Of a stretch of DNA of 64,000 bases, positions 1-43,192 are shown one piece after another. The notes under the pieces are model-generated. The model made no database searches and was not told the origin of the DNA. It was given only the letters and a program-made list of their open reading frames with translations. Source of the DNA: an uncultured virus (IMG/VR IMGVR_UViG_3300025120_000032) (Duplodnaviria; Heunggongvirae; Uroviricota; Caudoviricetes); IMG/VR virus record IMGVR_UViG_3300025120_000032; one strand, written 5' to 3'. Made by a program: the position numbers and the translations under genes. Position 1 is the stretch's first letter. Every line of letters begins with the position of its first letter.

Positions 1-136
1 TCAGAAAACGTTTAGATCCGTCTACTTTAGTTATGTCTATAGTATAATACACATATCCAGCTTTGTCCAGCATTTCTTTTATAATATCACAGTAGCCACA
101 TAGAGGTTGTGTATAAAGTCTTATTTCTTGTTCCAT
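1..136 (-). CDS. Glutaredoxin (NrdH/NrdC-like), 3' end runs off the window
   Basis: Not in the ORF track. My translation from ATG at 136 is MEQEIRLYTQPLCGYCDIIKEMLDKAGYVYYTIDITKVDGSKRFL, with a CxxC (CGYC) after a 'LYT' strand as in glutaredoxins. Confidence 0.8.
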   Translation of the reverse strand, partial: MEQEIRLYTQPLCGYCDIIKEMLDKAGYVYYTIDITKVDGSKRFL

Positions 137-426
137 AAGTGTTCCTCATTATACTTTACAAGACTGTTCGCAAACTTAGCAAAAGCCTTTATGGTTTCTA
201 TTTCTGTGCCAGTTGCACTCATAATCTCTAGTTTTTCATCCTCTGTTACACCATGCTTGATTGCCCAATGCATATGTATGTCATGACAATATATACAATC
301 ATTCTCCTTGCTTGTAATAGCAAATAGGTATTCTCTCTGACCCCTAGTATATTCTGACATTGCACCATTTACTATTACATAGTGTAATGTAGGAATAAGA
401 AATGCCTCTTGTTCTTTACTAAACAT
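121..426 (-). CDS. AhpD/carboxymuconolactone decarboxylase-like protein
   Basis: REYLFAITSKENDCIYCHDIH resembles the AhpD-family E...CxYCxxxH motif. Confidence 0.7.
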   Translation of the reverse strand: MFSKEQEAFLIPTLHYVIVNGAMSEYTRGQREYLFAITSKENDCIYCHDIHMHWAIKHGVTEDEKLEIMSATGTEIETIKAFAKFANSLVKYNEEHLWNKK

Positions 427-430
427 AGGA

Positions 431-1027
431 TTAAATCTTATTAAAATTTAGCACAAAAGAATGGTCATGTATTGTTTCTGATGGATTTGTGCTATAATAA
501 TGAATATTTTGAATTAAACCTTTTACTTTTACACCATAGATACCATACATAATATATCCTAACTTTGGTGTTTTACGGTTAGTGCGCCACTTGTTTTCTT
601 TTACTCCATTTGCTTCAACGTGTCTAGTAAAATATATAGTATCAATACCCTGTTCAGCAAAAAAAGGTTTTAAGTTATTTTTAAAGTTATCTCCTTCTAG
701 TTTCCAAAACTTAAAACCTAAAAGAAAATTATTTTGATCAGTGTTATAGGCTCTCAGTTTTCTTATAACTCTACCATCTACTTGCGGAGTTTTTTTAAAA
801 AAATAACCATATGTAGGTTTGTCGTTGACTAGATATAATGCCGTATAGTCTCTATCATAGTCTATCATACGATCATATGTAAAAGGGTTGTCATCAAGTT
901 GACTAAGGTTGTTTTTAGATGCTAAACTACAAGCATTCCACACCCACTCCTCAACATAGTTATCATTTTTATTATCAGTAAGAAGATATTTTACATTCGG
1001 AAGATTAGTATCAAATAACCTTTTCAA
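431..1027 (-). CDS. Hypothetical protein (possibly GNAT-like fold)
   Basis: 198-aa ORF overlapping its upstream neighbour. The fold guess is weak. Confidence 0.55.
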   Translation of the reverse strand: MKRLFDTNLPNVKYLLTDNKNDNYVEEWVWNACSLASKNNLSQLDDNPFTYDRMIDYDRDYTALYLVNDKPTYGYFFKKTPQVDGRVIRKLRAYNTDQNNFLLGFKFWKLEGDNFKNNLKPFFAEQGIDTIYFTRHVEANGVKENKWRTNRKTPKLGYIMYGIYGVKVKGLIQNIHYYSTNPSETIHDHSFVLNFNKI

Positions 1028-2009
1028 TAATCTGATTCCTTTTTACTTTACGTAGATTATCATCAATAGCAATGCTATCAACTTTCTTTGGAACAACCTC
1101 ATAACCACAAACATGATCTTTAATAAAGTTTTTAATATTCATATCACCAGTGAAATAAACTACACATTGCTTGCTGACTTTTCTACACAGTGCTAAACTT
1201 GCACCATTTTCTATAGCAACTTTTTCTATCTGTTCTGGATATACTCTATCACCACAGTTCTCCATTTTAAATGCGTTGTGTTGACGCCCTGCAAAGAAGA
1301 ACTCACCTTTACTATTATATTCTATAAGGTCTCCACTATTCCACCATTCATCCTGATCTTTATACTTACAAGCAAACTCTATAGATCCATCTTCATGATT
1401 AATGTTCTTATAGTCTATCATAGGATTTATATCATTGAAGTGATAAATGTCTTGCTGTTCAGTGGACATGATTAGGGGTGGAACCTCTGTGCTTCCATAA
1501 GCTGTGTTAACTTGTTGCGCTCCTTTAGACCTTAGATCTTCCATCATACCATTAGGAGTAACATCACTTCCTACTTGAAGTTGTTGTACACCACTAAGAT
1601 CCAAACTCTTCCATGACTTATGCCTGTGCCAAGTCTTCCACACATTAGGTAACATAAGAGAGTGAGTTGGATTTATTTCTCGTATTCTATTAGGATAATC
1701 TGATACTGTTGTTTCAACGAAAACATCACAATTTGCTAACGCACAAGGATATAGACTCATAGAGGTAAAGCCAATGCCTCTTGGATTATACAGAGCCATC
1801 ATAGTGCTATTTGAACTTAAACCAAATGCTTCAGCATTGTACTCAGCAATCTTATGCATAAGTTTACTATCATGCTTAAAGGTCTTAGGCTTACCAGTTG
1901 TTCCACTAGTGCTTACAGTTATGTTCCAATTTTCTAAATAATTTATGACTGACGATCTAACATGATCATTATCACTTTCAAGATATTCTATACTATCAAT
2001 GTAAATCAT
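1011..2009 (-). CDS. Adenylate-forming (ANL/AMP-binding) enzyme, N-terminally shortened
   Basis: Core motifs STSGTTGKPK (P-loop), AYGSTE, SGDL, GR..AFK...G.RVYPEQIE and a C-terminal Lys (KVKR). Confidence 0.85.
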   Translation of the reverse strand: MIYIDSIEYLESDNDHVRSSVINYLENWNITVSTSGTTGKPKTFKHDSKLMHKIAEYNAEAFGLSSNSTMMALYNPRGIGFTSMSLYPCALANCDVFVETTVSDYPNRIREINPTHSLMLPNVWKTWHRHKSWKSLDLSGVQQLQVGSDVTPNGMMEDLRSKGAQQVNTAYGSTEVPPLIMSTEQQDIYHFNDINPMIDYKNINHEDGSIEFACKYKDQDEWWNSGDLIEYNSKGEFFFAGRQHNAFKMENCGDRVYPEQIEKVAIENGASLALCRKVSKQCVVYFTGDMNIKNFIKDHVCGYEVVPKKVDSIAIDDNLRKVKRNQIIEKVI

Positions 2010-3648
2010 TTTCTAAAACCTCTGAAGGTGTTGCACCATTATACATTTTTTCTCTTAAGTAATCATATACATTGGGTGCATAATTAGATAAAGCTTCACC
2101 TTTATTTTTTATAAAGTCAAAGTTTACTTTTGCAAGTGGCATGAGAGATTCTTTTATTTTAATATCACAATTCTTATCAAAGCGATCTAGGTATAACTGT
2201 TGTTGCGCCCATTGATAATCTAAAAACATATTACGACCAGTGTAACCTCTTGGAGATCTATATTCTTGCCAGTTCTTTATGGCATCTTCTGTGTTGTTCC
2301 CCCATTTTTTCCACATAGGAGAGTCTTTTCTTTTCGACAAAGTAAAATGATAACTAATAAAATCTGAGATTTGTTTTTCTAATTTTTGCTGTTGTCTACT
2401 GTAGCTTTTTTTAGCTATCTCTGGTATATCTTTATGTTTATACTTCTCCAGTACCTGATCAAGAATCTGAATACAACTTTGTGCTACGTAAATACTGTTG
2501 GCTTCCATGGGATCTACAAACCCTTGACTCATACCCACACCAACAACATTATTTATCCATGCATCTTCATACCAACCTGATTCCCACTGAATCAATCTTG
2601 GGTCTTTTACAAAGTCGTAACCATCCCAATACTTAATAAACCTTTCTCTAGCTGAATCGGGATCTTCGGAGTTTTTATCAAAAATATAACCAGATCCCAT
2701 TCGACTGTATAACGGAATAATAAAATTCCAACCATTCTTTTGAGCATAACTTTGTGTGTACGGCTTCATTTCATTGTAAGGATCTTTATATTTTATAGGA
2801 GCAACTATCGCAGATTGCGTAGGTAGATGGGTTAACTGCTTCCACTTAGTAGGCATTTGTTTCATTAGCAATCTGTGAAACCCAGTACAGTCAACAAAAA
2901 TGTCACCTTCAATATTACTGCCATCTTTTAAATCTAATGAAACCACATCACCATTGTCAGATTTGTTTACATTCTGAACATAGCCTTTTATCCATTTAAC
3001 ACCAAGAGGGGAAGCAACCTGTTCTCTTACAATAATAGGAAATCTTTCAGCATCAACGTGCCAAGCATAAGTTTTTAAATCACCTAAAAGTAAATCGTTA
3101 TCCATATCATATGGCGATTTATTTTTCATGGCTAGGTAATATTGATCAGAAGTGTATTCAGCAACATCTTCTACTGAAATCTTACCTTCTCTGACTAGCT
3201 GTAAGGCATAGTCATAGCTTTTATTATCAATACCATAACTACCATCATTATCGTATAAGTAATCTTCTTCTATTATTTTGTTTTGAAAAGATTTCTTAAA
3301 CACACCATCTCTATGTGTTATAGAGAAGTGATAAAATTGTTGTTCGGATTTAGGTGCATTCCAATGATCAGTGACATGATTCTTAGGAGTCTCACTATTC
3401 CAACCAACAAAATGATTACCTAACTTGTAAACGGATCTAGTTCCTTTCATCCATTTATTTTCATCGACTTCTAACCAACGTAACATATCCCCAAGATGAG
3501 GGATAGTGCTTTCTCCAACACCTAAAATAGGTACATCAGGAGACTCTACTAAAGTAATTTTAAGATCGTTTTTACTATGTCTTTTTGCTAGTAATGATGC
3601 AGTAAACCATCCAGTAACTCCACCGCCTAAGATTACTAAGTTTCTCAT
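1996..3648 (-). CDS. prnA: Tryptophan halogenase-like flavin-dependent enzyme
   Basis: ILGGGVTGW FAD motif, GVGESTIP, YKLGNHFVGW (catalytic Lys position), FVDCTGF, GWNFIIPL (WxWxIP variant), FVDPMEA. Confidence 0.88.
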   Translation of the reverse strand: MRNLVILGGGVTGWFTASLLAKRHSKNDLKITLVESPDVPILGVGESTIPHLGDMLRWLEVDENKWMKGTRSVYKLGNHFVGWNSETPKNHVTDHWNAPKSEQQFYHFSITHRDGVFKKSFQNKIIEEDYLYDNDGSYGIDNKSYDYALQLVREGKISVEDVAEYTSDQYYLAMKNKSPYDMDNDLLLGDLKTYAWHVDAERFPIIVREQVASPLGVKWIKGYVQNVNKSDNGDVVSLDLKDGSNIEGDIFVDCTGFHRLLMKQMPTKWKQLTHLPTQSAIVAPIKYKDPYNEMKPYTQSYAQKNGWNFIIPLYSRMGSGYIFDKNSEDPDSARERFIKYWDGYDFVKDPRLIQWESGWYEDAWINNVVGVGMSQGFVDPMEANSIYVAQSCIQILDQVLEKYKHKDIPEIAKKSYSRQQQKLEKQISDFISYHFTLSKRKDSPMWKKWGNNTEDAIKNWQEYRSPRGYTGRNMFLDYQWAQQQLYLDRFDKNCDIKIKESLMPLAKVNFDFIKNKGEALSNYAPNVYDYLREKMYNGATPSEVLENDLH

Positions 3649-4166
3649 ACGTCTTCCTTAAACCAAGTTATTAGAACGAGCCTTCTTCCTGAGAATACTT
3701 CTTCAACCCCATGATACATTTCTCCACCATACATCAAACTATCTCCATTTTCTAGTGGCCCGGGTATCATTTTATGATAGTCTAAACTCTGTTTAGTTTT
3801 TGCAAAGTAGGCTTCACCACCTACCAAATCCTGACTTAAATCTATCATAGTAATAACTGAACAGTCTGATGCGTCAGGATTATCGGTATGTCCTTTCGCC
3901 CAAGAACCTTCTACGTAGTCACAAAGAAAAGCGTTTCTACAAGATGAGAGTTTCATTCTCGTAGTAGTCTCTGCGGCAAGTTGAACCCTATCTACCATTT
4001 CTGCTTGTATAGGATCTTCGTAATCTATGTTGTTTTGCCAAACTTTACGAAGATTATAGTTTTTTTCGTGGTATGTTTTATCCTCTTCAAAATAGTCTAT
4101 AAGATATGTTCTAGCTGACTGTGATAAAACATCTGTAGCCCATCCTAAATTATTATGTTCTATCAT
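3645..4166 (-). CDS. 2OG-Fe(II) oxygenase (prolyl-hydroxylase-like)
   Basis: HTD...GGEAYF...HGVEEVFSGRRLVLITWF matches the HxD...H...R signature. Confidence 0.8.
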   Translation of the reverse strand: MIEHNNLGWATDVLSQSARTYLIDYFEEDKTYHEKNYNLRKVWQNNIDYEDPIQAEMVDRVQLAAETTTRMKLSSCRNAFLCDYVEGSWAKGHTDNPDASDCSVITMIDLSQDLVGGEAYFAKTKQSLDYHKMIPGPLENGDSLMYGGEMYHGVEEVFSGRRLVLITWFKEDV

Positions 4167-5098
4167 TTAAACCTCACTTGAGACATTATCTCTGTCATCG
4201 ATGCAACTATATTTAGCTCGTGATCAGCAACGAATGCGTCCTTATATTGATAGTCTGCGAGAATAAGAATAAGTTGTGGGATGCTTTGAGGCTCGACATA
4301 TTCGCTAACGTTGTCATACAATGCCCTAAAGATTGCATTGGTATCCATGTCCATGTTGTCTACAACCCAACGCCGCATAGCCTTAAAGTTTTTATCTTTA
4401 AGTGAAGAGACTAGACCTGATATATCATTTCCACTAGTACTTGATACAGCATTAATGTTACCGCTACCGCCTATGGATAATCTCTGTGCTTCGTTGAGAA
4501 CTCTACGCCAATCAGGAGCGTGTTTCATAACTAGATCTATAGAAGCCTTCTGATCGACCTTAACACCTTCTTCTGATAGTATGTTTAAGAACCTCTTGTG
4601 AAACTGTGCCGCAAGTTGAGCAAGACCTTTCTTGGTTGTATTGAACTCATACACACCACAGCGTGAGTGGAGTGGTTCTATGATACGATTCTTAAAGTTA
4701 CAAGTAAGTATAAACCTACAGTTATTACTGAACTCTTCGATAAAAGCACGTAAGGCTGGTTGAGTTGATTGTGGGTTGAGATAGTCGGCTTCATCTAGAA
4801 TGACAACCTTGTAGCCACCTTGTAATGATATAGAAGATGCAAACTGCTTGATCTTACCACGTAGGGTATCAATGTTACCTTCTTCAGATCCGTTGATTAG
4901 AATGTAGTCAAGGTCAAGTTCATTACATAAGGCTTTGGCTACAGTGGTCTTACCAAGTCCAGCCGTTCCAGTAAAAAGCATATTGGGAAGTTCTTTGGTA
5001 GATACGACTGCTTTGAAGGTATCCTTTAATTCCTTTGGTAGTATACAGTCACCAATAGTCTGTGGGCGATACTTTTCTACCCATAAAAATTCATTCAT
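4163..5098 (-). CDS. g44: Clamp loader large subunit gp44
   Basis: LWVEKYRP, Walker A GTAGLGKTT, ILDEAD, SRC motif; near gp45. Confidence 0.95.
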   Translation of the reverse strand: MNEFLWVEKYRPQTIGDCILPKELKDTFKAVVSTKELPNMLFTGTAGLGKTTVAKALCNELDLDYILINGSEEGNIDTLRGKIKQFASSISLQGGYKVVILDEADYLNPQSTQPALRAFIEEFSNNCRFILTCNFKNRIIEPLHSRCGVYEFNTTKKGLAQLAAQFHKRFLNILSEEGVKVDQKASIDLVMKHAPDWRRVLNEAQRLSIGGSGNINAVSSTSGNDISGLVSSLKDKNFKAMRRWVVDNMDMDTNAIFRALYDNVSEYVEPQSIPQLILILADYQYKDAFVADHELNIVASMTEIMSQVRFK

Positions 5099-5102
5099 CT
5101 TA

Positions 5103-5615
5103 CTACCCCATCAAATCCATAATATTATTATACACTACTTCGTAAGGTTCGTCAACTATTGACAACTTAAAAAGTATCCTATCTTCACTGCCATTCCATA
5201 CACCATGAGGTAAACTGGTATTCAGTAATGCTGTTTTATATTCGTACGTATTACCAGACTGCTCAAAACTAACTGGAGCGGGTTTACCTGATAAGATAAA
5301 GTTTATTCCACAAGTAAGATCAGGGTCAACATGATAAGGTAAAACAGTATTAGCCTTAAGAAAAAAAAATCTAGGTTTAGCTTTTACACCAAACAAGTCC
5401 ATCAATGTCTGAGGATATTCTTCAAGCTCTACTTTAGATACTTTGAAGACATCTCTATCTTCCTCAGAAGATTTGCTTTTGGTTACTCTTTTTAACGTTT
5501 CAGCATCATAATCTTTACCCCAACTTCTTGCCTTTGATTTGTATTTTTCATGCCATAGTCTTAAAAGTTTAGCACGATCAAAATTTAAATTAAAGGCAAG
5601 AAATTCTTTGTTCAT
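5103..5615 (-). CDS. Putative 2OG-Fe(II)/cupin oxygenase
   Basis: LPYHVD...LLNTSLPHGVWN...DRILFKLS has HxD...H...R spacing. Confidence 0.6.
   Translation of the reverse strand: MNKEFLAFNLNFDRAKLLRLWHEKYKSKARSWGKDYDAETLKRVTKSKSSEEDRDVFKVSKVELEEYPQTLMDLFGVKAKPRFFFLKANTVLPYHVDPDLTCGINFILSGKPAPVSFEQSGNTYEYKTALLNTSLPHGVWNGSEDRILFKLSIVDEPYEVVYNNIMDLMG
5127..5155 (-). promoter_or_regulatory. Sigma70-type promoter driving gp44 and the downstream enzyme cluster
   Basis: Minus strand TTGACG-N17-TATAAT, about 30 nt upstream of the gp44 ATG and inside the 3' end of the upstream ORF. Confidence 0.75.
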
Positions 5616-5845
5616 TAATCAGAGTCTGCCGCCGCATCTTGCTGATACGTCTCAGCCATCTGAATGAGTTGCACTGACTGATCACGTAGTTGACCTAGTG
5701 TGGATAACTCTTCACCCTTAACGGCACCACGTTGGACCATAGTATCAATCACTGCTACAGTTGAACGGCATACTCGACTTGCCATATCGTATACTGGAGC
5801 ATGAGATTCATGCGCCAACTTCACTTCGTCTTCTTGTTTAGCCAT
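5615..5845 (-). CDS. Hypothetical protein
   Basis: 76-aa ORF with a GGAG SD, packed between gp45 and the oxygenase. Confidence 0.65.
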   Translation of the reverse strand: MAKQEDEVKLAHESHAPVYDMASRVCRSTVAVIDTMVQRGAVKGEELSTLGQLRDQSVQLIQMAETYQQDAAADSD

Positions 5846-5848
5846 TTT

Positions 5849-6523
5849 TTATTCTCCGTAAGTTGATGACTTTTCTAATGCAACCCAATACTTTAGGGTT
5901 GCGTCTGAGTTACTAAACTCAGAAATAAGTTTTGATGATATTTTAACCTTGTAATCGTCAGAGACCATCTTAAGATTGTTGATATTTATAACGAATTTAA
6001 ATACGTCTTTGTTGTATCCCCCATCTACTACTACTGCATAAGTGTTAGCAGTGCTATTCTCAGGATCATTCACTGATAACTTGATAGCACCATCGTCTGC
6101 TTCAATAACCATCTGTCCATGCCCAAAGATACTTGCCGCACGTTTTAGACCATTGAGTGTATTCATATCCAAGTCAAACCAGACATCTGCCTCTGGCATT
6201 TCGATTGGTTTAGTAGGACTTGTCAACATCTCTGTATCAGCATAATAATACTTAATAAGTTCTCTACCAGACTGACCATTGATATTCATGAAGTTATCTT
6301 CAAACCTAACGCTAGGAGTATCAACTAGTCCTAGCATATTTAGAAACTCAGATAGATCGTAAATACCTACAACATCATCAAAGGTTTCTTTTACTTGTGC
6401 TTCCGCTAAGATGTTCTTAGCTTCAGATATAGTCATTATCTTATTCCCCGGCCTAATGACTATGTTAGCATTAATGTTTGAGAAGTTCTTTAGCACATTC
6501 ACTGTTTCTGCACTGATTTCCAT
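5849..6523 (-). CDS. g45: Sliding clamp gp45
   Basis: LKNFSNIN, GIYDLSEFL, YWVALE motifs; synteny with gp46 and gp44. Confidence 0.93.
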   Translation of the reverse strand: MEISAETVNVLKNFSNINANIVIRPGNKIMTISEAKNILAEAQVKETFDDVVGIYDLSEFLNMLGLVDTPSVRFEDNFMNINGQSGRELIKYYYADTEMLTSPTKPIEMPEADVWFDLDMNTLNGLKRAASIFGHGQMVIEADDGAIKLSVNDPENSTANTYAVVVDGGYNKDVFKFVININNLKMVSDDYKVKISSKLISEFSNSDATLKYWVALEKSSTYGE

Positions 6524-6765
6524 TATAAAATTTCCTTTTTCACTATTGGTAGGCTTGCGGCCTCTAATAAACTTTCAGACGAGCAATCAAATTGAAGTCT
6601 GTAATATTCATTGGACATATAGTCCATCCACTTTCCTTCTGATCTCATCGATTCACATTCTGTTTGAGTCATGGGATAGTTTAAGACATACTGATTGCCA
6701 ATATATAGCCACTCATTCATTTCTGTCTTGCCCCACATACTTATGACCAAGAAAAACATTTCCAT
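6523..6765 (-). CDS. Hypothetical protein
   Basis: 80-aa ORF with overlapping start/stop codons on both sides. Confidence 0.6.
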   Translation of the reverse strand: MEMFFLVISMWGKTEMNEWLYIGNQYVLNYPMTQTECESMRSEGKWMDYMSNEYYRLQFDCSSESLLEAASLPIVKKEIL

Positions 6766-8477
6766 TATTTTATCCTACTAAAGTTTTTGTCTTTGTATAT
6801 TTCTATTTTATTCTCGAACCTATTCTCCATCATCTCACCTTTATGTGATATGACAAATACATTGGTATCGTTGTCTAAACTATATATGATTTTCATAAGA
6901 TTGTCAACCCCTTCATGATCTAAAGAAGAATCAAATGTCTCATCAAGTATAAGTAGATTAGTAGCAACACTATTCTTCATCTTGGCTATGTGCCGCCATG
7001 TAAATAGTAATGATAGATCTATACGTGACTTCTCACCTTCTGAGAATGATTGATATGAAAAGTTATCTCTATGTCTAGATCTAATAGTTTCTTGAAATGA
7101 TTCGTCTAGGTTAAATGACACAAAGAAGTCTAGTGTCTGTAAATACCTATTGACAAGCATATTAATAACTGGTAAGTATTCTTTCACAATCTTAGTCTTG
7201 ATGCCAGTGTCTTTAAGCATTTCACCTATAACAATATTATAATTGGATTGCTCATTTAATATTAGTTTCTCTTCCACCAAAGAATCACGATTGTCTGAAA
7301 GAGTGGTAAGCTCACCATTCGCTTCGTCCATATCTATGTTGTGATCAAGTTTACCTATCTCTTTTTGAGTGCGATCAATAGAAGATTGAAACTGTGATAT
7401 AGATTGGTTGTTTACTGCTAGTTCATTCTGTTTCTGTCTACAAGTTTCTATTATTTGAGCGGCAGATACTAATGCTGATTGGGCTGATAATAGTTCTTCG
7501 TCAGCCTTACTAGATGCAGTCTGAAGTTCTTTGGCTCTTTCCTTACCTTTAAACACATGATCTTTTTTAGTATCTTCTGTGATAGGTTGAGTGCAAGTAG
7601 GACATATATCATTAGTCTCAAAGAACTGTACTTCTTTCACAAGCTTCTTTATTTCTGTGCCAAACTTAGTCTTATACTTCTCAAGAGATTTTATTTCACC
7701 TTCACGTTTTGCTTTCTCTTCATCAGCAAAAGGAAGATACTGTTGAATGCTATCACTTAGTTCAGTATTCTTTCCGTTGAGAGTTTTGATTTCATTCTGG
7801 CAATCTGCAATGAGTTCGAGTTTCGCTTCTTTCTGTTCTTTGTTGATTGATTTAATATCTTTAATATACTTTTTCTGCGCCTCAAGTTGCGTCTGATTAA
7901 CAGTGCTTTGATGGGCAACATCTTTCATCTGATCCTTTAGTGTGCTATGTTTTGTTTTCAGTAAACCATTCATCTTTGAGAATACATTAATGTCCAGAAG
8001 ATCCTCAATAACATCTCTACGATTAGGTGATGAGAGTTGCATAAAAGGAATGAATGAAGACGATCCCAACACTACAATCTGGTGAAAGCTTTTATGATTA
8101 AGCTTCAAGATGTTTTGCTCAAGGATCTTCTGGTAGTCTTTTGCATGAGAAGACTGATCTATAAGTTCTCCATTATGCATTATCTCAAATATATTAGGCT
8201 TTATACCTCTACGAATAAGGTAATCAGAACCATGCACAGTAAACTCTACTTCAACCATACTATCCTTATTGTTTATAGAATTGACTAGTTGAGGTTTAGA
8301 TATGTTACGATGAGCCTTGCCGAATAGGGCAAACGACAACGCATCAAGCATTGTAGATTTACCAGCCCCATTATGGCCTATAACTAACGTAGATTTGTGG
8401 GCTGTAAAATCAACCTTAGTAAAGTTATTACCCGTACTAAGGAAGTTCTTCCATGCCAAAGTTTTAAATATAATCAT
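6765..8477 (-). CDS. g46: Recombination endonuclease ATPase subunit gp46 (SbcC/Rad50-like)
   Basis: GHNGAGKS, CPTC zinc hook, FSEGEK signature, LILDE. Confidence 0.95.
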   Translation of the reverse strand: MIIFKTLAWKNFLSTGNNFTKVDFTAHKSTLVIGHNGAGKSTMLDALSFALFGKAHRNISKPQLVNSINNKDSMVEVEFTVHGSDYLIRRGIKPNIFEIMHNGELIDQSSHAKDYQKILEQNILKLNHKSFHQIVVLGSSSFIPFMQLSSPNRRDVIEDLLDINVFSKMNGLLKTKHSTLKDQMKDVAHQSTVNQTQLEAQKKYIKDIKSINKEQKEAKLELIADCQNEIKTLNGKNTELSDSIQQYLPFADEEKAKREGEIKSLEKYKTKFGTEIKKLVKEVQFFETNDICPTCTQPITEDTKKDHVFKGKERAKELQTASSKADEELLSAQSALVSAAQIIETCRQKQNELAVNNQSISQFQSSIDRTQKEIGKLDHNIDMDEANGELTTLSDNRDSLVEEKLILNEQSNYNIVIGEMLKDTGIKTKIVKEYLPVINMLVNRYLQTLDFFVSFNLDESFQETIRSRHRDNFSYQSFSEGEKSRIDLSLLFTWRHIAKMKNSVATNLLILDETFDSSLDHEGVDNLMKIIYSLDNDTNVFVISHKGEMMENRFENKIEIYKDKNFSRIK

Positions 8478-10258: not shown

Positions 10259-11014
10259 CTAGTCTATTGCTTTGATGTGTTTGATATATTCTGTCATGGA
10301 ATGATCACTAAAGTTATCAACTTTACCTTTTTTCAAACCCATCCACATACCATTCAACTTATCTTTAACTCTTTGCCATTTGGTCAGACTAACATACTTA
10401 CCATATGCATTTATATAGTGTTGTGTTCCATGGTGAACATATCCCATCAACCGTAGAGGAACTGTAGTGACGATATCATTATTATTCTTCCACCTATGAT
10501 GGACTACAGATAAACTTTTAACATACCTTCTCCAACCTACACGAGGAGATCCGTATGTGTATAGTTCTTGAGGGTTAGGAACCTTATCATTGAAATGACA
10601 CCTACTTGCCATAATAGTAGCCATCGCCGCTCCTAAAGAATGACCACAGAACCAAAGTTCTCTTTTACCCTTTAAGCCCATTATGTCAGCCATAACTCTA
10701 GGCCACAGCATATCCACTTCATCCTTAAAGCCTCTGTGAACTCTACTAAGAGTTTCTGCTATCACTGGCATTGCTTTTAGATCAGCACTGATATCATTGA
10801 ACTCTGTAGGTTGTGTACCACGACAAGCAATAACCAGATCAGTCTTATTACCAAACCTATATGCCTGTGCTCCATCCTTATCATAAAATTCTACAGTTGT
10901 AAAACCTAACTTCTTCGCTTCAGTTTTAACTTTGCTTGGTTTGTTGTAAGATATGCTTGCAAGCTTTGCGAATAGGAGAGATCTCTCTTTGAAATTTAGT
11001 TTTTGTATGCTCAT
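10259..11014 (-). CDS. Class 3 lipase (alpha/beta hydrolase)
   Basis: IACRGT, VHRGF, GHSLG nucleophile motif, YTYGSPRVG, NNDIVTTVP, DHSM. Start moved to MSIQKL (11014), which has a GAAGGA SD. Confidence 0.88.
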   Translation of the reverse strand: MSIQKLNFKERSLLFAKLASISYNKPSKVKTEAKKLGFTTVEFYDKDGAQAYRFGNKTDLVIACRGTQPTEFNDISADLKAMPVIAETLSRVHRGFKDEVDMLWPRVMADIMGLKGKRELWFCGHSLGAAMATIMASRCHFNDKVPNPQELYTYGSPRVGWRRYVKSLSVVHHRWKNNNDIVTTVPLRLMGYVHHGTQHYINAYGKYVSLTKWQRVKDKLNGMWMGLKKGKVDNFSDHSMTEYIKHIKAID

Positions 11015-11024
11015 GTCATTTCCT

Positions 11025-11450
11025 TCAATGCATTTTGTTTCTGGGAGTTGGGAATGATAGCACATTAGGACTATCTGAATCGTGATATAATTCCATACCA
11101 TCACGCATCTCTTTTAGTTTTTCAACATACTCACCCACTTTTTCTATTAGTTCTTCTTCTGATAGTTCGTTATTATCTATTGCTTCTTTATAATTTTTTA
11201 CCATTATAAGATCTGGATTGGCTTCTCCAACAAGATGATTACCCTCTAAAGAGATAAACATATCACCACCTTCTTGCAAAGCCATCCAAGGTCTAAAGGT
11301 ATAATACCTATTACCGTTTTTATCAAAGGTAGTTCTTAGTTGTAAGACCCTACGAACAACTAGTCCACTGAAATCATCAGTAGGCCATTCTAGAACTTCG
11401 CAGATTATTTCATCTCCGCTAACTAACTTGAATTGTTTTATTTCATTCAT
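11025..11450 (-). CDS. Conserved T4-like hypothetical protein downstream of uvsW
   Basis: FKLVSGDEIICEV N-terminus and position after uvsW. Confidence 0.7.
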   Translation of the reverse strand: MNEIKQFKLVSGDEIICEVLEWPTDDFSGLVVRRVLQLRTTFDKNGNRYYTFRPWMALQEGGDMFISLEGNHLVGEANPDLIMVKNYKEAIDNNELSEEELIEKVGEYVEKLKEMRDGMELYHDSDSPNVLSFPTPRNKMH

Positions 11451-37207: not shown

Positions 37208-37215
37208 TATTTATA
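37208..37215 (-). promoter_or_regulatory. T4-type late promoter
   Basis: TATAAATA overlapping the stop codon of the glycosyltransferase gene. Confidence 0.7.
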
Positions 37216-37906
37216 AGAAATATTTCTCTAAACTTTTATAATGTTGGTCTTCACACTGAGATAAAATACATATTGTTCTATCAGGATCGTAGTTAAACAA
37301 GTTATCATCTAACTTATCTTCAGACAACCAACCCTTCGCCCTATGATAGTAGTCACGTTTGAAATCAAAACAAGACAGGTTGCTGTATTCATGAGTAATG
37401 AACCTGTCTAATCCATAGTAGTGTATGATATTATAATCAATATTATCTATAAACTTATCGTATATTTCTTTATGTTGCTTGGTATATAACAACATTATAG
37501 ATGTATTTATGTTAGTTGTGGGGATAGTTAAAATGTTATCAGGTGAGCCATCATAAGGATAATCCTCGCCAATATCTTCACCATTGATAATTCTAAGCGT
37601 ATCATCAATGTCATCAAACATATAATCTATGTTGTTTTGTATCACAACATCTAAGTCAAGATACAACGTTGGGTCATCAAAGTCAAGATTAAAAAGTTCT
37701 ATTTTCCACCAATAAGTTTCTAAGTCTAGACTCTTATCAATAAAAATAGTATTGACTTCTTGCTGAACATCTGATATACAATAAAAAGAAAATGGTAGAG
37801 TACAGTTTCGCTCTACCATTCTGTGTAATCTATTAACGTGTTCTTTAGTATACTTTGTTCCTACACATACACATACTATATTAACTTTCTGTTTCAAGAT
37901 CCTCAA
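37211..37906 (-). CDS. Glycosyltransferase-like (GT-A fold)
   Basis: IVCVCVGTKY, FYCISD, WWKIELF, LYLDLDVVI (DxD), INTSIM. Confidence 0.75.
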   Translation of the reverse strand: MRILKQKVNIVCVCVGTKYTKEHVNRLHRMVERNCTLPFSFYCISDVQQEVNTIFIDKSLDLETYWWKIELFNLDFDDPTLYLDLDVVIQNNIDYMFDDIDDTLRIINGEDIGEDYPYDGSPDNILTIPTTNINTSIMLLYTKQHKEIYDKFIDNIDYNIIHYYGLDRFITHEYSNLSCFDFKRDYYHRAKGWLSEDKLDDNLFNYDPDRTICILSQCEDQHYKSLEKYFL

Positions 37907-38564
37907 TCACCTCTTCCCAAAATGCATCAGCCTCTGCAAAAATAAATGATACAGTAATACGGTAACAGTCTGTATAAGCGGCATGATAACATAGGCTATC
38001 TGGAGTATGATACTCACCAAAGTAACTCATCTTTGCTTGCCAGCCTTTCTTATCTTGAACTCTAATACGTTCTTTCTTTTCAGTATCCCAATAGTCGAAC
38101 CATCCTTCACCTGTTTCTGAATAGGTTATAATGATGTTAAAGCCTGAAGCATTAGCATTATTGTGCCAAGAGATAAATCCTTTTGGTGGATAGCAAGCAT
38201 TAAGGGCATTATTTCTACAAGAAAGAAACGCAATAAGTTTTGAATTTAAAGTTGACGTAGCGTCTTTAATAATCTTTCCATCTTTATGATGTCCATCAGT
38301 ATGTTTAATCCCCATAAACCCTTTTAACACTACTGGAAATCCATCGTGCCTATCACCCATAGACATAATCTCTTTCAGATACTGATCTGAAACATAGTCT
38401 TCAGATTTACTATCTTCATTACTGATGCGAAGTTCTTTTGCAATCAGTGGATCATCATCAGGCTGATCTCTCTTAAGCAAGACATCTTTATATTCATCTA
38501 ATATATCTAAAAACTCTTTATTTTTTAGATCAATATCTCTCATGTAGTTGTGTTTAATGTTCAT
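37881..38564 (-). CDS. Putative cupin/2OG-type oxygenase-like protein
   Basis: YPPKGFISWHNN...CYHAAYTDCYRITVSF. Start placed at the TAATG overlap (38564). Confidence 0.5.
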   Translation of the reverse strand: MNIKHNYMRDIDLKNKEFLDILDEYKDVLLKRDQPDDDPLIAKELRISNEDSKSEDYVSDQYLKEIMSMGDRHDGFPVVLKGFMGIKHTDGHHKDGKIIKDATSTLNSKLIAFLSCRNNALNACYPPKGFISWHNNANASGFNIIITYSETGEGWFDYWDTEKKERIRVQDKKGWQAKMSYFGEYHTPDSLCYHAAYTDCYRITVSFIFAEADAFWEEVIEDLETES

Positions 38565-39403
38565 TATAAAAACCCTTTTTCTCCATATTTGTCCATCCAA
38601 CTTGAATAGTGTATTACTACGGGGGCTGGATCTGTCTTCCAATAATCTCTTTTAGAATCTACCCTATGACAGTTATAACCACCTTCTATAGGAAACCCAA
38701 ATGAAGTGAAGTAGTTCCAACGATAGTTATCGTCAAAGAACTTCCACTTAAGAGATTTATATTTGGGCGAATGATAAATCAGCCACCACAAAGTAAGCTG
38801 ATCCCATTCTCTAAAGTTTCCTACTTTAATATTATCAAATTCTTTAGGTGTCCAGAAACCACCTCTTTGTTCTAAATACAAGTTGTACCAATCCATCATA
38901 AACTGGTTTATTAATGGGTTTCTAGTATCATATAACGCAACACCACCGCAATGAGCAAGATGATCTGGAGCACCTTTATATCCATCATCAAAAATATTTG
39001 GCCCCCAATCCCAATCAGCAAAATGCTTTGCACCTTCTTTTGTGAGATTAACATAAGCCATATCATACTTACCATCCTCAAGATGATCGAATACGCTAGA
39101 GATTTCTTTGCTAATGATTTCTACATCAGCATCCATATAGAAAGTTAAATCATAGGGAGAGTTAGCCATTCCCCACATTTTTTCTCTATTAGTATTATTA
39201 GGAGTAGGTAAAACGTGATCGAAATCTCTGAAATACTTTTGACATTCAGGATCATCTATAAAATGTTGTTCAGTAAAAAGAGTAATTTTTGCTTCTGGAT
39301 AATGATCTAGAATAGATTCTTTTACATTATCGGCACCCATTAAAAACTGTTTGCGTTTAGTCGCTACAATTAAAAATCCTTTAGTCGGATTTTTCTTCTT
39401 CAT
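38564..39403 (-). CDS. Glycosyltransferase-like (GT-A fold)
   Basis: KMWGMANSPYDLTFYMDAD (DxD), GGVALY, WDQLTLW, RWNY, VIHYS. Confidence 0.72.
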   Translation of the reverse strand: MKKKNPTKGFLIVATKRKQFLMGADNVKESILDHYPEAKITLFTEQHFIDDPECQKYFRDFDHVLPTPNNTNREKMWGMANSPYDLTFYMDADVEIISKEISSVFDHLEDGKYDMAYVNLTKEGAKHFADWDWGPNIFDDGYKGAPDHLAHCGGVALYDTRNPLINQFMMDWYNLYLEQRGGFWTPKEFDNIKVGNFREWDQLTLWWLIYHSPKYKSLKWKFFDDNYRWNYFTSFGFPIEGGYNCHRVDSKRDYWKTDPAPVVIHYSSWMDKYGEKGFL

Positions 39404-39833
39404 TCATAATCTCCATTAATAATATAGTAGCATATGCTTGCATTTCAATAGCATTTTTAGCTTTTCTAATTTTAGATTTCAGTGTGCGATTAGTAGATTC
39501 TTTTATCTGAGGAATTTCAAAAGTCTGTAATTTAAAATTAAATAAATCTTCAAGTCTTTTAGACTCATTTTTTTCTGCTTGTTTTTTAATATTACTTTCA
39601 CGTTCTTGCTTATGACGATCCAAACGTTCTTGAGTAAATTCATCAATTTTAGTCATAGTATTCTGTTTTAAAATTTCTTCATAGTCTGAAGTTATTTTTC
39701 CATCAGCATCAAACTTAGAAACTTTAGCAACACTTGTTGAATAAGAACCATCATCATGTGTGATATTCAATCTAACAGTTAACCTGTCTTTTGCGGCGTT
39801 TTCCCAAAATGGATGTACCCATTCTTTTTTCAT
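39381..39833 (-). CDS. Hypothetical protein (possible chaperone or adaptor)
   Basis: 150-aa helical ORF between the repeat protein and the GT genes. Confidence 0.65.
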   Translation of the reverse strand: MKKEWVHPFWENAAKDRLTVRLNITHDDGSYSTSVAKVSKFDADGKITSDYEEILKQNTMTKIDEFTQERLDRHKQERESNIKKQAEKNESKRLEDLFNFKLQTFEIPQIKESTNRTLKSKIRKAKNAIEMQAYATILLMEIMNEEEKSD

Positions 39834-39845
39834 TATATTAATCTC

Positions 39846-41852
39846 CTATGATATTCTTACGTATAGTGTATAAGTTTCGTTTGTTGCGCTTGCGGATTGT
39901 ATAGTTTCACCCTCAAAGTTTCCTTGAAAGTTTCCAAGATAGTCTGTTATATATGAAGTATCAAAAGCTTTATCATATATATTCTCATAGTTACCTTCGT
40001 ATGCTGTAGAGTAAGCGGTATCAAAGGCTCCTTCATATGATGTGGTATACACACCCGTAAACACTCTGTCATATGTAGCAGTATAAACAGCACCATCATA
40101 GTCGCTTAAATAACCAGTAGTATATGATGTAGTATAATTCTGACTAAACTCGTTTTGATAGTTACCTTGATAAGCCGTGGTATAGCTGATAGTATACTGC
40201 CCCTCATATTGTGTTGTATAGTTTACTGGAAATGGACTTATATAATTGATATTGGTCAGTCTATTATAATTCCTGTCAATCCCAAGCACATATGCCGTGA
40301 GGTAGTTGTTACCATAGTATATAGGTTGGATTTGTAGTTCGAAAGTACCTGTAAACACTCTGTCATACACAACCCCCACACTTCTAGTGTAATTGCTTTG
40401 ATAATTTCCAACAAAGACACGAGCATAATTACCAGCATATGCCGTTCCTGGAACGTCAGGCGCATTGTAGGTTGTTTGACCACCACCCCTACCTGAACCT
40501 TGATAATAAGTTGGTGGAGCATTCCTTGTATAAGATTGGGGTTGTGCTGGCCCAACAAAGTTGCTAATAAACTCACCAGTATATTGAATGGTGAAAACAC
40601 GTATATAATCTGAGCTAACGTTGCCGCCAAATTGCCCATTAAAATCTCTAAGGTAATTTACGAGACCTTGATATCGAAGGAAGTCTCTGGTATAGTTTGT
40701 CGAAAAGTAATACAACTGTTGACCAACATAGTTGTTATTCTCCGTTCGATTATAAGCTCTCTCAACAGTGCCTTGATAATTTGTACTAAATTGACCTGTG
40801 AACTGCCTATCGTAATTAACACTAGTGTTTCTTAAAAAGTTTCCAGTGTATTGGGTAGTATATTGTGTGTCGTAGTTTTGGTTAAAGGTTCCAGTAAAAG
40901 TAGAAGTATATCCCTGATTAAAACCACCAGTATAATCTATAGAATACCCTTGATCAAATACTCTGGTGTAAGCAGAGGTATAATTCACATTACTTATACT
41001 TGTGAAGTTTGTGGCATACCCTGTTGTATATGATGTCGTGTAATTAGCTTGAAAGTTTACAGTGCTATCTCTAGTAAATGCTTGATTAGCAGTAGTATTC
41101 CTAGTATCAGTCGCAGTACCTTTGGCAACCCACGTTCCAGTATCAGTAGGAGCACCCTGTGAAGAGTTCCTAAGTTGATACGAACCTATCTTGGATGCCG
41201 CTATACGTGTCTTTGCTCTTTGTCCAAATGAGAACTTAATCTCAGCATCAGACATTTCCTGAACACCAGCAAAGGATGCTTCGTTCTTTAGGCGCATAGG
41301 TCTAACAGCCGTTGGTGCAGTTCCACCAGTTCTTTTCCATAACTTATGTGCTATAGAAGCTCCATCAGTTCTAGTGTCTATAAATGCCGTTTGCTGTTCT
41401 GTCCAATCACCACTTGGTGCTGATGTGGATAGTCGGTATGATCCGGGAAATTCTTGAGTAAATATTATACTTAAGTATCTATCAACAGTCTCATTTAGAT
41501 CTACGTCTGGCATCATTTTAAAACCAGTTTCTGATCCTGAGTCTACCCACATAAGAGGTCTAAATACATCAGAATCAGTTTCTGCCGCCGTACCGTTTGT
41601 CTGATAGATTACAGTATTAGTTGTACCTGTGGTAATACTTGTAGAGGGATGTGTTCCTACAGCCTGATTAAAAAATGTATTAGAATATGTTCCTACAGTA
41701 TCACCAGTTGTGGCTCTGTTCAAAGATCCTACTTCCGCTGAATCAGCGGTGCTCAAGTGTAGTCCTACTTGATACGCAATATAGTTTTCTTCAGTAGTCG
41801 TTAACTCTTGAATATTACCATTAGCATCTTTTAACTTAAGAGGTGTTGCCAT
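39846..41852 (-). CDS. Fibre-like protein with a long xxx[Y/F] tetrad-repeat region
   Basis: About 400 residues with an aromatic roughly every fourth position (NYTTSYTTGYATNF...). Confidence 0.75.
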   Translation of the reverse strand: MATPLKLKDANGNIQELTTTEENYIAYQVGLHLSTADSAEVGSLNRATTGDTVGTYSNTFFNQAVGTHPSTSITTGTTNTVIYQTNGTAAETDSDVFRPLMWVDSGSETGFKMMPDVDLNETVDRYLSIIFTQEFPGSYRLSTSAPSGDWTEQQTAFIDTRTDGASIAHKLWKRTGGTAPTAVRPMRLKNEASFAGVQEMSDAEIKFSFGQRAKTRIAASKIGSYQLRNSSQGAPTDTGTWVAKGTATDTRNTTANQAFTRDSTVNFQANYTTSYTTGYATNFTSISNVNYTSAYTRVFDQGYSIDYTGGFNQGYTSTFTGTFNQNYDTQYTTQYTGNFLRNTSVNYDRQFTGQFSTNYQGTVERAYNRTENNNYVGQQLYYFSTNYTRDFLRYQGLVNYLRDFNGQFGGNVSSDYIRVFTIQYTGEFISNFVGPAQPQSYTRNAPPTYYQGSGRGGGQTTYNAPDVPGTAYAGNYARVFVGNYQSNYTRSVGVVYDRVFTGTFELQIQPIYYGNNYLTAYVLGIDRNYNRLTNINYISPFPVNYTTQYEGQYTISYTTAYQGNYQNEFSQNYTTSYTTGYLSDYDGAVYTATYDRVFTGVYTTSYEGAFDTAYSTAYEGNYENIYDKAFDTSYITDYLGNFQGNFEGETIQSASATNETYTLYVRIS

Positions 41853-41857
41853 AGTTT

Positions 41858-41897
41858 ATTATACCTATACATTACTAATCTGTCAAGGGTATTTATA
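41858..41897 (-). promoter_or_regulatory. Tandem late (TATAAATA) and perfect sigma70 promoter
   Basis: TATAAATA at 41890-41897, then TTGACA (41881-41886)-N17-TATAAT (41858-41863), ending 5 nt before the ATG. Confidence 0.8.
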
Positions 41898-41903
41898 ATA
41901 GAT

Positions 41904-42548
41904 TTATCGCCAAAACATATTGGTGCGCCAAGCCAAAGTAGTTGTTGTAGCCGCTGGCCAAGTTAAAGTAATGGTTCCAGTTGAATAATCAAAGTTGCCC
42001 ATTTGGGAACTATTGCGTGGCGAAAGCATTCGGCTTCCATATCCACTAGTTTGATTCCCATACGGTGCGCCACGCTTTGGATAAATCCAAGTCCCACCAC
42101 TACTGGTATCGGCATCATAAGTTTGCCAACTTTCTAAAAATGTCTGTGGGTATGTTGCGGCGGTTGTTTTTGTATTACCTACTCCAGTATTCTTAAAATA
42201 GACCATAACTCTGGAATTAATCTTAATTTTCACCGCCGCATCATCTATTGTCATGTTTCTAGAATTGCCAAACTGAATTTGGATACTGCCCGACCAACTT
42301 GGTGGACTAGAAGTACAAAGCCAACAATCAAGAACAAGGATAGCTTCACCAAAATGATTTGTAGTAGGTTGAACCCCAAGAGTGCGAAGATTTTGCGTCC
42401 CTGCACCCCAAGAGCCAGAACCACCTCTGGATGCCTGAGTACCTTTTGTCCAGCTATCCATATCATGTATAGCAGTATTAGATGACGCTAGATTGGTTAG
42501 TTTTCTTGTGTCATCAATAACAGAGGTTGTTCCAATTTTAAAAGCCAT
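41904..42548 (-). CDS. Putative fibre-tip/adhesin paralog 3
   Basis: Begins MAFKIGTTSVIDDTR and ends WRTNMFWR. Confidence 0.6.
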   Translation of the reverse strand: MAFKIGTTSVIDDTRKLTNLASSNTAIHDMDSWTKGTQASRGGSGSWGAGTQNLRTLGVQPTTNHFGEAILVLDCWLCTSSPPSWSGSIQIQFGNSRNMTIDDAAVKIKINSRVMVYFKNTGVGNTKTTAATYPQTFLESWQTYDADTSSGGTWIYPKRGAPYGNQTSGYGSRMLSPRNSSQMGNFDYSTGTITLTWPAATTTTLAWRTNMFWR

Positions 42549-42560
42549 TTTATTATACCT

Positions 42561-43157
42561 TTATCTCCACCAAACCTGATGTTCCATTGTCATTATTGAG
42601 GTTCCACACGTTGGCCATTCTATTGAAACCGCACCACCACTCGTTGAATACGCATTATCTTTCTCAGTAACATCAAATCTACCTAAAATATCAAAGGTAT
42701 TACTGTTAGTATCAGCCATTGCGGTAATAAAACTATGTGGAGCGGCATAACTAGTGCCACTGATACTTTGTCTGGCAGTTTTTATCATGAGATAGAAACA
42801 AGAGCCAACTTTAACGGTCGTGTTGTTATTAAGAAGTAAGGCATTCCATGCCATCGAAGTGCCAACTTGATACAAGGGGAAAGCACTAAAAGTTCCGGGG
42901 TTACCACTTGCCGCTGTGATTTTAAATCGATATATTGCATCAGTAAAATCAGTGTTGGTGGGGTAAACATTAACACTTCGTAGGTCTACAGTTCCACTCG
43001 TCCAAGAGAATGCCCCCGAACCACCACGAGTGTAAACTCCCGAACTATTGGATGTTCCTGTGGTCCAGTGTCTCCAACTGTTAACTTCTTCCACAGTCCC
43101 TGCGGTTAAATTTCTGGAGTTATCAATAATATTACTACCGTTGATTTGAAAGGCCAT
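42561..43157 (-). CDS. Putative fibre-tip/adhesin paralog 2
   Basis: Begins MAFQINGSNIIDNSR and ends MEHQVWWR. Confidence 0.6.
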   Translation of the reverse strand: MAFQINGSNIIDNSRNLTAGTVEEVNSWRHWTTGTSNSSGVYTRGGSGAFSWTSGTVDLRSVNVYPTNTDFTDAIYRFKITAASGNPGTFSAFPLYQVGTSMAWNALLLNNNTTVKVGSCFYLMIKTARQSISGTSYAAPHSFITAMADTNSNTFDILGRFDVTEKDNAYSTSGGAVSIEWPTCGTSIMTMEHQVWWR

Positions 43158-43192
43158 CTATCCCATCCCGATTTTAACTGAATAAAAATAAT

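Follow-up and report, generated by a model that had tools for sequence, protein, structure and literature searches.

Flavin-dependent halogenases such as RebH, PrnA, Thal and the cyanophage enzyme VirX1 carry a catalytic lysine and a conserved glutamate. To our knowledge, halogenases of ocean phages are abundant and no natural substrate is known for them; VirX1, said to be the one characterised viral halogenase, has reportedly been studied on non-native substrates. N-acylation by an ANL adenylating enzyme and a GNAT-fold transferase is known from mycobactin biosynthesis (FadD33 and MbtK, the latter being Rv1347c), from the N-acyl amino acid synthase FeeM, and from the CoA-dependent N-acyl-homoserine lactone (AHL) synthases RpaI and BjaI. 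That phages carry halogenases, and that these are associated with dioxygenases, is likewise on record in passages of PMC2938197 and PMC10452541; those of the former, which also mention the flavin-halogenase lysine, report that phage Syn9 has ten dioxygenases arrayed together with two halogenases, and predict that neighbourhoods of this type modify amino-acid-derived metabolites or peptides (Iyer et al. 2010, PMC2938197). Here we analyse a 64,000-nucleotide stretch of DNA from an uncultured virus (IMG/VR record IMGVR_UViG_3300025120_000032), called the window throughout, in which genes for a halogenase, a short ANL enzyme and a GNAT-fold protein lie together in a replication gene cluster. A preliminary description, made by a model from the letters alone, had joined six genes behind gp44 into one biosynthetic operon. 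A core of three of these genes is well supported by the present analysis, and a six-gene pathway unit is not supported.

The locus resembles those of Syn9 and of the proteobacterial TonB/SapC type, as set out in passages of PMC2938197, in placing a halogenase near 2-oxoglutarate/Fe(II) (2OG-Fe(II))-type dioxygenases, here in a T4-like marine phage. Given the Syn9 arrays in that source, the earlier picture of marine T4-like phages, with halogenase and 2OG-Fe(II) genes present only singly, is outdated. Unlike the Syn9-type loci, the dioxygenases are dispensable here and the constant part consists of the ANL gene and a GNAT-fold gene; the passages of PMC2938197 on halogenases and cyanophages name no adenylating enzyme or GNAT partner for the Syn9-type phage clusters, and the term "AMP" occurs 0 times in that article. 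The resemblance to siderophore and lipoamino-acid pathways is of another kind, in that an adenylating enzyme adjoins a GNAT-fold transferase within a cassette. Structural matches of the window's GNAT-fold protein (GNAT_A) and of a second such family (GNAT_B, described below) include Rv1347c (1yk3, Z 8.2 and 9.5), FeeM (2g0b, Z 9.6), LasI (Z 9.9), RpaI and BjaI. The relation of GNAT_A and GNAT_B to these enzymes is undetectable at the sequence level, with hints confined to FeeM (E 0.033) and Acetyltransf_1 (E 0.0026, in two giant-phage members). Unlike those pathways, the cassette has no carrier protein gene, its ANL enzyme is about 150 residues shorter, and its genes are viral only.

All cassette genes lie on the minus strand (coordinates are those of the window), and the first gene of the trio encodes a 550-amino-acid flavin-dependent halogenase (1996-3648). 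The protein is a clear member of the tryptophan-halogenase family with predicted halogenating activity, matching PF04820 at E 1.1e-89 (301.9 bits against a cut-off of 21) and aligning with RebH at E 8e-57. Like RebH, PrnA, Thal and VirX1, it combines PF04820 membership with the flavin adenine dinucleotide (FAD) motif, GVGExTIP, the lysine and the glutamate. In the RebH alignment the FAD-binding GxGxxG is kept (GGGVTGW, GGGTAGW in RebH), as is GVGE(S/A)TIP; the lysine stands in YKLG (YKVA in RebH) and the glutamate in FVDPMEAN (FVEPLEST in RebH), and both (K75 and E382) are invariant in the alignment of the halogenase family. Other flavin halogenases differ from the window enzyme, which carries some 80 extra residues around 105-190 when compared with RebH, belongs to a clade of its own that is linked to ANL genes, and departs from the WxWxIP motif of flavin halogenases. 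The motif reads GWNFIIP, with phenylalanine in place of the second tryptophan, and this residue (F309) is invariant in the family alignment; the ANL-linked halogenase of giant phages shares this phenylalanine (GWIFKI). Cyanophage VirX1 (PDB 6qgm) is matched at E 2e-49, and 67 phage records match the halogenase, such genes being common among T4-like phages of the sea, although identity to the halogenases of cultured phages is only 25-30%. Relatives of at least 53% identity form one clade in a quick tree (SH-aLRT 100), and an ANL gene then follows in 29 of 29 of them for which downstream sequence is present. Two halogenase genes each were seen in three other loci, adjacent to one another in L269 and L270 and separated by one open reading frame (ORF) in L260; these lie in other clades, far from that of the window's halogenase, and no ANL gene accompanies them.

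The second gene (1011-2009), which overlaps the halogenase gene by 14 nt (2009/1996), encodes a short ANL adenylating enzyme of 332 amino acids. It matches PF00501 with 48.1 bits against a cut-off of 29.9, over profile positions 170-335 of 384 only. Like acyl-CoA synthetases, the adenylation domains of nonribosomal peptide synthetases, and luciferases, it keeps the core motifs and a C-terminal lysine. The named motifs of the superfamily are the P-loop (T/S)SGTTGxPK, YGxTE, (S/T)GD and GRxxxx(I/F)K, and their counterparts TSGTTGxPK, YGSTE, SGD and GRxxxxFK are all present and invariant or nearly so among 16 family members, with SG..G.P, YGS.E, S.D and GR....FK as the strictly invariant family pattern; near the C-terminus K321 is invariant in NLRK(V/I) and is a candidate for the catalytic A10 lysine. 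Unlike canonical ANL enzymes, the protein has no counterpart of the first ~150-170 residues, so placing its P-loop at residue 33 instead of ~184: this P-loop aligns with residue 184 of PDB 6ihk, a 539-amino-acid ANL structure, and YGSTE also aligns, while a full N-terminal domain of ~400 amino acids is not found, about 150 N-terminal residues being absent. Because the family as a whole measures 320-355 amino acids, has a conserved N-terminus (MIYIDG) and keeps the core motifs, the predicted product is a minimal ANL enzyme without ~150 N-terminal residues and not the remnant of a truncated gene. In NCBIfam even its best scores stay far short of all equivalog cut-offs. In a motif-seeded scan of prokaryotes (one genome for each of 185,579 species), from which divergent members could escape, no close relative was found, the seven matches being generic (21-34%); ESM Atlas look-alikes in bacterial clusters of similar length (~345 amino acids) offer a lead only. 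As far as sequence comparison indicates, the lineage is virus-restricted, having been found only in viruses.

The third gene (431-1027), which the ANL gene overlaps by 17 nt (1027/1011), encodes the 198-amino-acid protein GNAT_A. Searches of Pfam, PHROG and NCBIfam gave no match at E<=0.1, and its relatives fall into only 24 clusters, all unnamed and all from marine samples. An AlphaFold2 model built from 27 sequences (pLDDT 86, pTM 0.84) returned 117 PDB matches at E<=1e-3 with Foldseek, each of those listed being a GNAT, and with VIA-align the best 50 matches all belong to the GNAT superfamily, the first being the AHL synthase LasI (Z 9.9). We are confident, on the strength of this model, in predicting a GNAT acyltransferase fold in a new sequence family, which is in keeping with the earlier suggestion of a possible acyltransferase. 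The matches include protein N-acetyltransferases, AHL synthases and aminoglycoside acetyltransferases, with Z within 1 unit.

The linkage of these genes was followed with a profile of the ANL family, which recovered 109 viral loci; the best 80 were analysed, 26 of them T4-like and 54 of another kind, containing 49 distinct full-length ANL sequences and many near-duplicates. Among the T4-like loci, GNAT_A adjoins the ANL gene in 23 of 26, the other three ending at that gene, and a halogenase lies no more than two genes from it in 24 of 26. Where both flanks are complete, all three genes are present in every case (14/14). Conservation as a block, the check proposed in the preliminary description, thus holds for the trio and fails for the whole gene set, and the logic proposed there (hydroxylate or halogenate, activate, transfer) fits the conserved halogenase-ANL-GNAT trio and not the six genes.

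The 54 remaining loci lie on a different backbone. Their contigs of 76-170 kb are 20-48% complete by CheckV, and Gp23 (capsid) matches were found in two of four such records searched, which points to giant phages of the T4 superfamily with predicted genomes of ~350 kb or more. Here a second family of ~200 amino acids, GNAT_B, adjoins the ANL gene in 47 of 54 loci; its predicted model (pLDDT 91.6) has GNATs as 50 of 50 matches, with a best Z of 12.3 and FeeM at Z 9.6. A common ancestry of GNAT_A and GNAT_B cannot be claimed, the similarity of their profiles being non-significant (hhalign probability <1%). In nine of the 47 ANL-GNAT_B loci a PF04820 halogenase is present as well, the arrangement being ANL-halogenase-GNAT or GNAT-ANL-halogenase. 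Overall, an ANL gene and a GNAT-fold gene are adjacent in 70 of 75 loci with downstream sequence, in two lineages and three gene orders, and the genes of the module overlap by 1-26 nt in all arrangements. GNAT_B also stands beside or near a halogenase in three loci with no ANL gene (L254:2813-4847, L257 and L263). In a quick tree of the 49 ANL sequences, eight from giant phages fall inside the T4-like clade; they share ~73% identity with the window's ANL enzyme and are still located beside GNAT_B, so that the two ANL lineages appear interchangeable with that partner. This tree is most simply read as one ANL lineage having taken over the other's position, which would imply equivalent function, and the pattern shows that partners have been swapped between T4-like phages of ordinary and of giant size. 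A constant divergent neighbour of the ANL-GNAT_B module, in ~40 giant-phage loci, is a gene for a 457-amino-acid twitch-domain radical SAM protein (NF033640, 298 bits, above the cut-off; L028:9562-10935, minus strand).

These arrangements bear on the least probable of the explanations considered, in which the GNAT-fold protein is a regulator that acylates the catalytic lysine of the ANL enzyme, a switch of the type by which Pat/AcuA control acetyl-CoA synthetase. Regulatory GNAT-ANL pairs are established, a complex of the PAT GNAT with the C-terminal domain of Acs (4u5y) is among the structural matches (Z 8.4), and the ANL enzyme keeps its invariant C-terminal lysine. But the tight translational coupling and the roughly 1:1 stoichiometry that goes with it would be unusual for a regulator in a lytic phage, GNAT-halogenase pairs exist without any ANL gene, and the same regulatory function would have had to arise in each of two unrelated GNAT families.

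What is proposed instead is that the core of the island is a phage-specific, translationally packed module of three enzymes that makes an amide-linked, optionally halogenated conjugate during infection, a proposal whose chances of being right or wrong we regard as about equal. In broader terms, a halogenated acylated compound is probably the product or the target of the trio during infection. The families and folds, linkage, packing and insertion site were observed; the order of reactions, the substrates and the product we infer. The ANL enzyme would activate a carboxylic acid as acyl-AMP, possibly acyl-CoA, and from this activated form the acyl group would pass to an amine by way of the GNAT-fold transferase. 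The role of the halogenase would be to attach halogen to an electron-rich and probably aromatic moiety, either in the substrate or in the product. The outcome in the infected cell would be an amide-linked and optionally halogenated conjugate. Such a mechanism would draw on established ANL and GNAT chemistry.

Small amines, amino acids and lipid-like molecules would be the likeliest acceptors, and the small membrane proteins and desaturase-like genes that recur beside the module give a weak hint of a lipidic or hydrophobic partner. A more specific version, in which the minimal ANL enzyme and a GNAT resembling AHL synthases or FeeM build a halogenated N-acyl or N-aryl amide (such as a lipoamino acid or a signal similar to an acyl- or aryl-homoserine lactone) that is released as a viral signal or antibiotic against neighbouring bacteria or competing phages, is unlikely as a whole. 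The acceptor could also be macromolecular: with an acyl donor made by the ANL enzyme, the GNAT would acylate a protein or peptide of host or phage at a lysine or at the N-terminus, and the halogenase would modify tryptophan or tyrosine of the same target. Many of the top structural matches are indeed protein N-acetyltransferases (NatD, RimI, GCN5 and HP0935), but AHL synthases, FeeM, aminoglycoside acetyltransferases and the MbtK-like Rv1347c score the same to within 1 Z unit. The giant-phage module directly follows a glycine-rich ORF of ~480 amino acids that is possibly structural, and passages of PMC2938197 argue that dioxygenase/halogenase neighbourhoods act on peptides or else on collagen-like and tail-collar proteins; the genes neighbouring the module, though, are wholly different between the two phage lineages, and no small precursor-like ORF is conserved with the trio, ORFs of 62 and 63 amino acids occurring in two relatives only. 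A protein or peptide target is on this evidence rather unlikely.

Several observations weigh against a conjugate-forming module made of these three enzymes. At the sequence level the window's GNAT_A protein has no match to any GNAT family (Pfam Acetyltransf and similar profiles). GNATs bind the pyrophosphate of acyl-CoA through a Q/RxxGxG/A loop after strand 4; in the GNAT_A alignment R89, R92 and Y94 are invariant on the strand of the CoA loop and no GxG/A is evident. The Z values of 8-10 obtained with VIA-align are only moderately above the background of that aligner, and the predicted fold of GNAT_A would not by itself prove acyl transfer. In canonical ANL enzymes the N-terminal subdomain that is missing here forms part of the acyl pocket, so the chemistry of the minimal enzyme may be atypical. 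The halogenase is missing from 38 of the 47 giant-phage modules, which means that halogenation is not obligatory and that the core is ANL plus GNAT; the halogenase would supply a tailoring or precursor step around this core. The ANL-linked halogenases fall into two clades that are not exclusive sisters in a quick tree, and since many metagenomic loci are near-duplicates, the counts of linkage are not counts of independent events. Five fully flanked loci (L074, L077, L098, L106 and L107) have no recognisable GNAT by the ANL gene and carry DUF2061 or DUF6356 instead, and two others (L210 and L214) read halogenase-ANL-DUF6356, again with no recognisable GNAT. No RNA run containing the stretch was found among the sequencing runs searched.

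Neighbours in loci of this kind were considered as possible GNATs and rejected, the ORFs of 216 amino acids in L077, 172 in L074 and 187 in L214 being unrelated to either GNAT profile; the last is amidase-like. A giant-phage ORF of 72-83 amino acids beside the ANL gene was likewise discarded as a carrier protein candidate, being a DUF6356 membrane protein and not a PP-binding domain. Membrane proteins of the DUF6356 family (72-95 amino acids) stand beside the ANL gene in otherwise different contexts (L076:4605-4823, L106:1345-1575 and L214:6176-6442), and DUF2061 membrane proteins follow it in L074 and L098.

The site at which the cassette is inserted lies between the two clamp-loader genes, gp44 and gp62. 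Its left border is gp44, the large subunit of the clamp loader (4163-5098, minus strand; phrog_168, E 1e-111), beyond which, on the far side of a 170-amino-acid ORF, lie a 76-amino-acid ORF, gp45, gp46 and gp47; what remains of the window is taken up by a structural and replication module of T4-like type. By gp46 the nearest cultured relative is Phage C48C1 (Kyanoviridae, 55%), followed by OM43 phage Melnitz and cyanophages at ~45%. In Phage C48C1 gp62 and regA come directly after gp44, and in the window-identical contig L001 the glutaredoxin gene is followed by gp62 and regA just past the window edge; gp62 and regA normally follow gp44, in keeping with the earlier remark on the order gp44, gp62, regA and gp43 in T4. 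The 80 viral contigs most similar in gp44, from at least 599 matches, were surveyed, and 67 have a complete gp44-gp62 interval. The interval is empty in 11, holds glutaredoxin only in 16, glutaredoxin with other genes in 3, other genes only in 33, and the halogenase-ANL-GNAT cassette in 4, two further cassettes being cut by contig ends. Given the diverse contents of this interval and of the gp45-gp44 interval, the stretch is a mosaic cargo island in a hypervariable insertion hotspot. Dozens of different small gene sets occupy the gap in the gp44 relatives L117-L193, and a recurrent 194-amino-acid ORF and an FA_desaturase-like gene occur in it both with and without the cassette. A search for psbA (PF00124) found it in 0 of 5 related viral records, all of them fragments.

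There might also be no pathway at all, the genes being independent morons that lie together merely through a shared insertion site. The many gene sets in the gap, and the oxygenases, the AhpD-like gene, the desaturase-like gene and the 194-amino-acid ORF that occur with and without the cassette, agree with that explanation; the adjacency of ANL and GNAT genes in two lineages and three orders, the unbroken link of the window's halogenase clade to ANL genes in all 29 informative loci, and the halogenase-GNAT pairs that exist even without ANL do not. The linkage data weigh strongly against chance clustering of the trio, though not of the passengers, and for the trio we consider it quite improbable. 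Position is a reason to think of nucleic acids or nucleotides as the target, for instance in a protective base hypermodification in which a Mom-like GNAT would use a group activated by the ANL enzyme. The cassette does lie inside a replication gene cluster, Mom of phage Mu (8bv8) is among the structural matches of GNAT_A (Z 8.2), and the divergent neighbour in giant phages is the twitch radical-SAM gene. But the gap is a generic hotspot, so that position carries little meaning, Mom comes 36th, level with dozens of other GNATs, and Pfam and NCBIfam scans of the trio gave no nucleotide-metabolism domain. We also know of no flavin halogenase that acts on DNA, although no search was aimed at this point. 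Modification of nucleic acids is highly improbable as the role of the trio. A module forming an amide-linked conjugate remains the preferred reading.

The other genes of the island vary. All ORFs, overlaps and junctions reported earlier for 1-5615 were found at their positions in the ORF listing. Upstream of the trio, a 173-amino-acid ORF (3645-4166, minus strand) overlaps gp44 by 4 nt (4166/4163) and the halogenase gene by 4 nt (3648/3645). It matches phrog_61 (2OG-Fe(II) oxygenase) at E 2.8e-6 and PRK05467 of NCBIfam at E 1e-6 (28.4 bits against a cut-off of 143) and has no Pfam match, and GHTD, YHGV and RRL can be read in it as an HxD...H...R pattern, so it is classed as a probable 2OG-Fe(II) dioxygenase and a variable accessory gene, being present in only some cassette-bearing relatives. 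In L004, where gp44 and the ANL enzyme share 97-99% identity with their window counterparts, the homologue is broken up into a pair of ORFs (106 and 91 amino acids; L004:4536-5080), perhaps by a frameshift or because the gene is decaying. Downstream, 4 nt after GNAT_A (431/426), lies a gene for an AhpD/CMD-like protein of 101 amino acids (121-426, minus strand) with a CxxCH motif (CIYCH) and sub-threshold matches to PF02627 (E 3.5e-3, 17.7 bits against 23) and TIGR00778 (20.3 against 27.8). In other relatives it is swapped for unknown ORFs of 194-201 amino acids or for a gene of the FA_desaturase family, a membrane protein of 238-247 amino acids with PF00487 matches of E 6e-9 to 3e-11 and weak matches to DesA families.

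The AhpD-like gene overlaps by 16 nt (136/121) an NrdC-like glutaredoxin gene (2-136, minus strand; PF00462, 27.5 bits against 22.9) that is cut by the window edge; the full-length protein in the 100%-identical contigs L001 and L002 has 101 amino acids and matches phrog_22 (in L001). There is no indication that these two genes form a thiol-redox pair within the pathway, as had been proposed, since glutaredoxin occurs alone in the gap in 16 of 67 related contigs; it is an independent, frequent resident of the gap and not specific to the module. On the other side of gp44 an ORF of 170 amino acids (5103-5615, minus strand) does stand where a second oxygenase-like gene had been described, but it has no Pfam, PHROG or NCBIfam match. 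Its own viral clusters in the ESM Atlas are unnamed and the nearest named ones are Asp/Asn-hydroxylase or 2OG-FeII, so that cupin/2OG-oxygenase-like is a lead only. It is a separate insertion between the 76-amino-acid ORF and gp44, in a second hotspot, and was found in one of 78 gp45-gp44 intervals of related contigs. Both oxygenases, the AhpD-like gene and glutaredoxin are thus separate, exchangeable passengers; the six genes do not behave as an operon that is kept as a unit, with only the trio constant and the others varying or occurring independently.

The sigma-70-like motif TTGACG-N17-TATAAT, downstream of which the genes had been placed, is present on the minus strand at 5155..5127, upstream of gp44 and within the 3' end of the 170-amino-acid ORF. 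Promoter-like sites in 1-7000 number 30, against 30.9 expected from shuffles, and of seven aligned cassette-bearing relatives only L004, a close one, retains it; the motif is therefore a candidate promoter only. The T4-type late-promoter motif TATAAATA occurs at 16 sites in the window (5983-58338) against 7.6 expected, a number reached in 0 of 100 shuffles. All 16 lie on the minus (coding) strand, many directly upstream of structural genes, and a scan of the window gave 0 sites in 1-5700, which fits early or middle expression of the cassette alongside the replication genes.

The stretch is real and widespread, since contigs at least 99% identical over its whole length were found in four marine metagenome runs not flagged as its source. 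In a read and contig check of four DNA runs the cassette was fully covered, with no contig bridging it and no deletion variant. The stretch is present in sequencing runs of 15 studies, two of which are possibly the source, and megablast of 1-5700 and tblastn of the ANL enzyme gave no match in a collection of cultured phages from which records near the window may be missing. Elsewhere in the window, an esterase/lipase-like gene for 281 amino acids (10259-11104, minus strand; phrog_21992, E 7e-28) lies in the replication/recombination block, flanked by a helicase gene and by gp55, the late sigma factor. A glycosyltransferase-like gene (37211-37906, minus strand; phrog_1962, E 2e-11) lies among the tail-fibre genes; after it come seven ORFs (37881-43858), none of which matches PHROG at E<=1e-10.

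No description of a phage halogenase-ANL-GNAT module was found in the literature searched, which included passages of PMC2938197, PMC7029224 and PMC10452541 and had subscription journals outside its scope. What these sources do not describe is a clade of halogenases locked to both a minimal ANL enzyme and a partner of GNAT fold, confined to viruses in the prokaryote scan above, and shared and reshuffled among T4-like phages of ordinary and of giant size. The module defines a virus-restricted lineage of minimal ANL enzymes and two new GNAT-fold families, and the halogenase clade locked to ANL and GNAT provides a concrete three-gene system for reconstituting the native chemistry of a phage halogenase. 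If a product is made, the module would be among very few phage-encoded pathways for small molecules or for modifying lipids, and it would be one found in widespread marine viruses.

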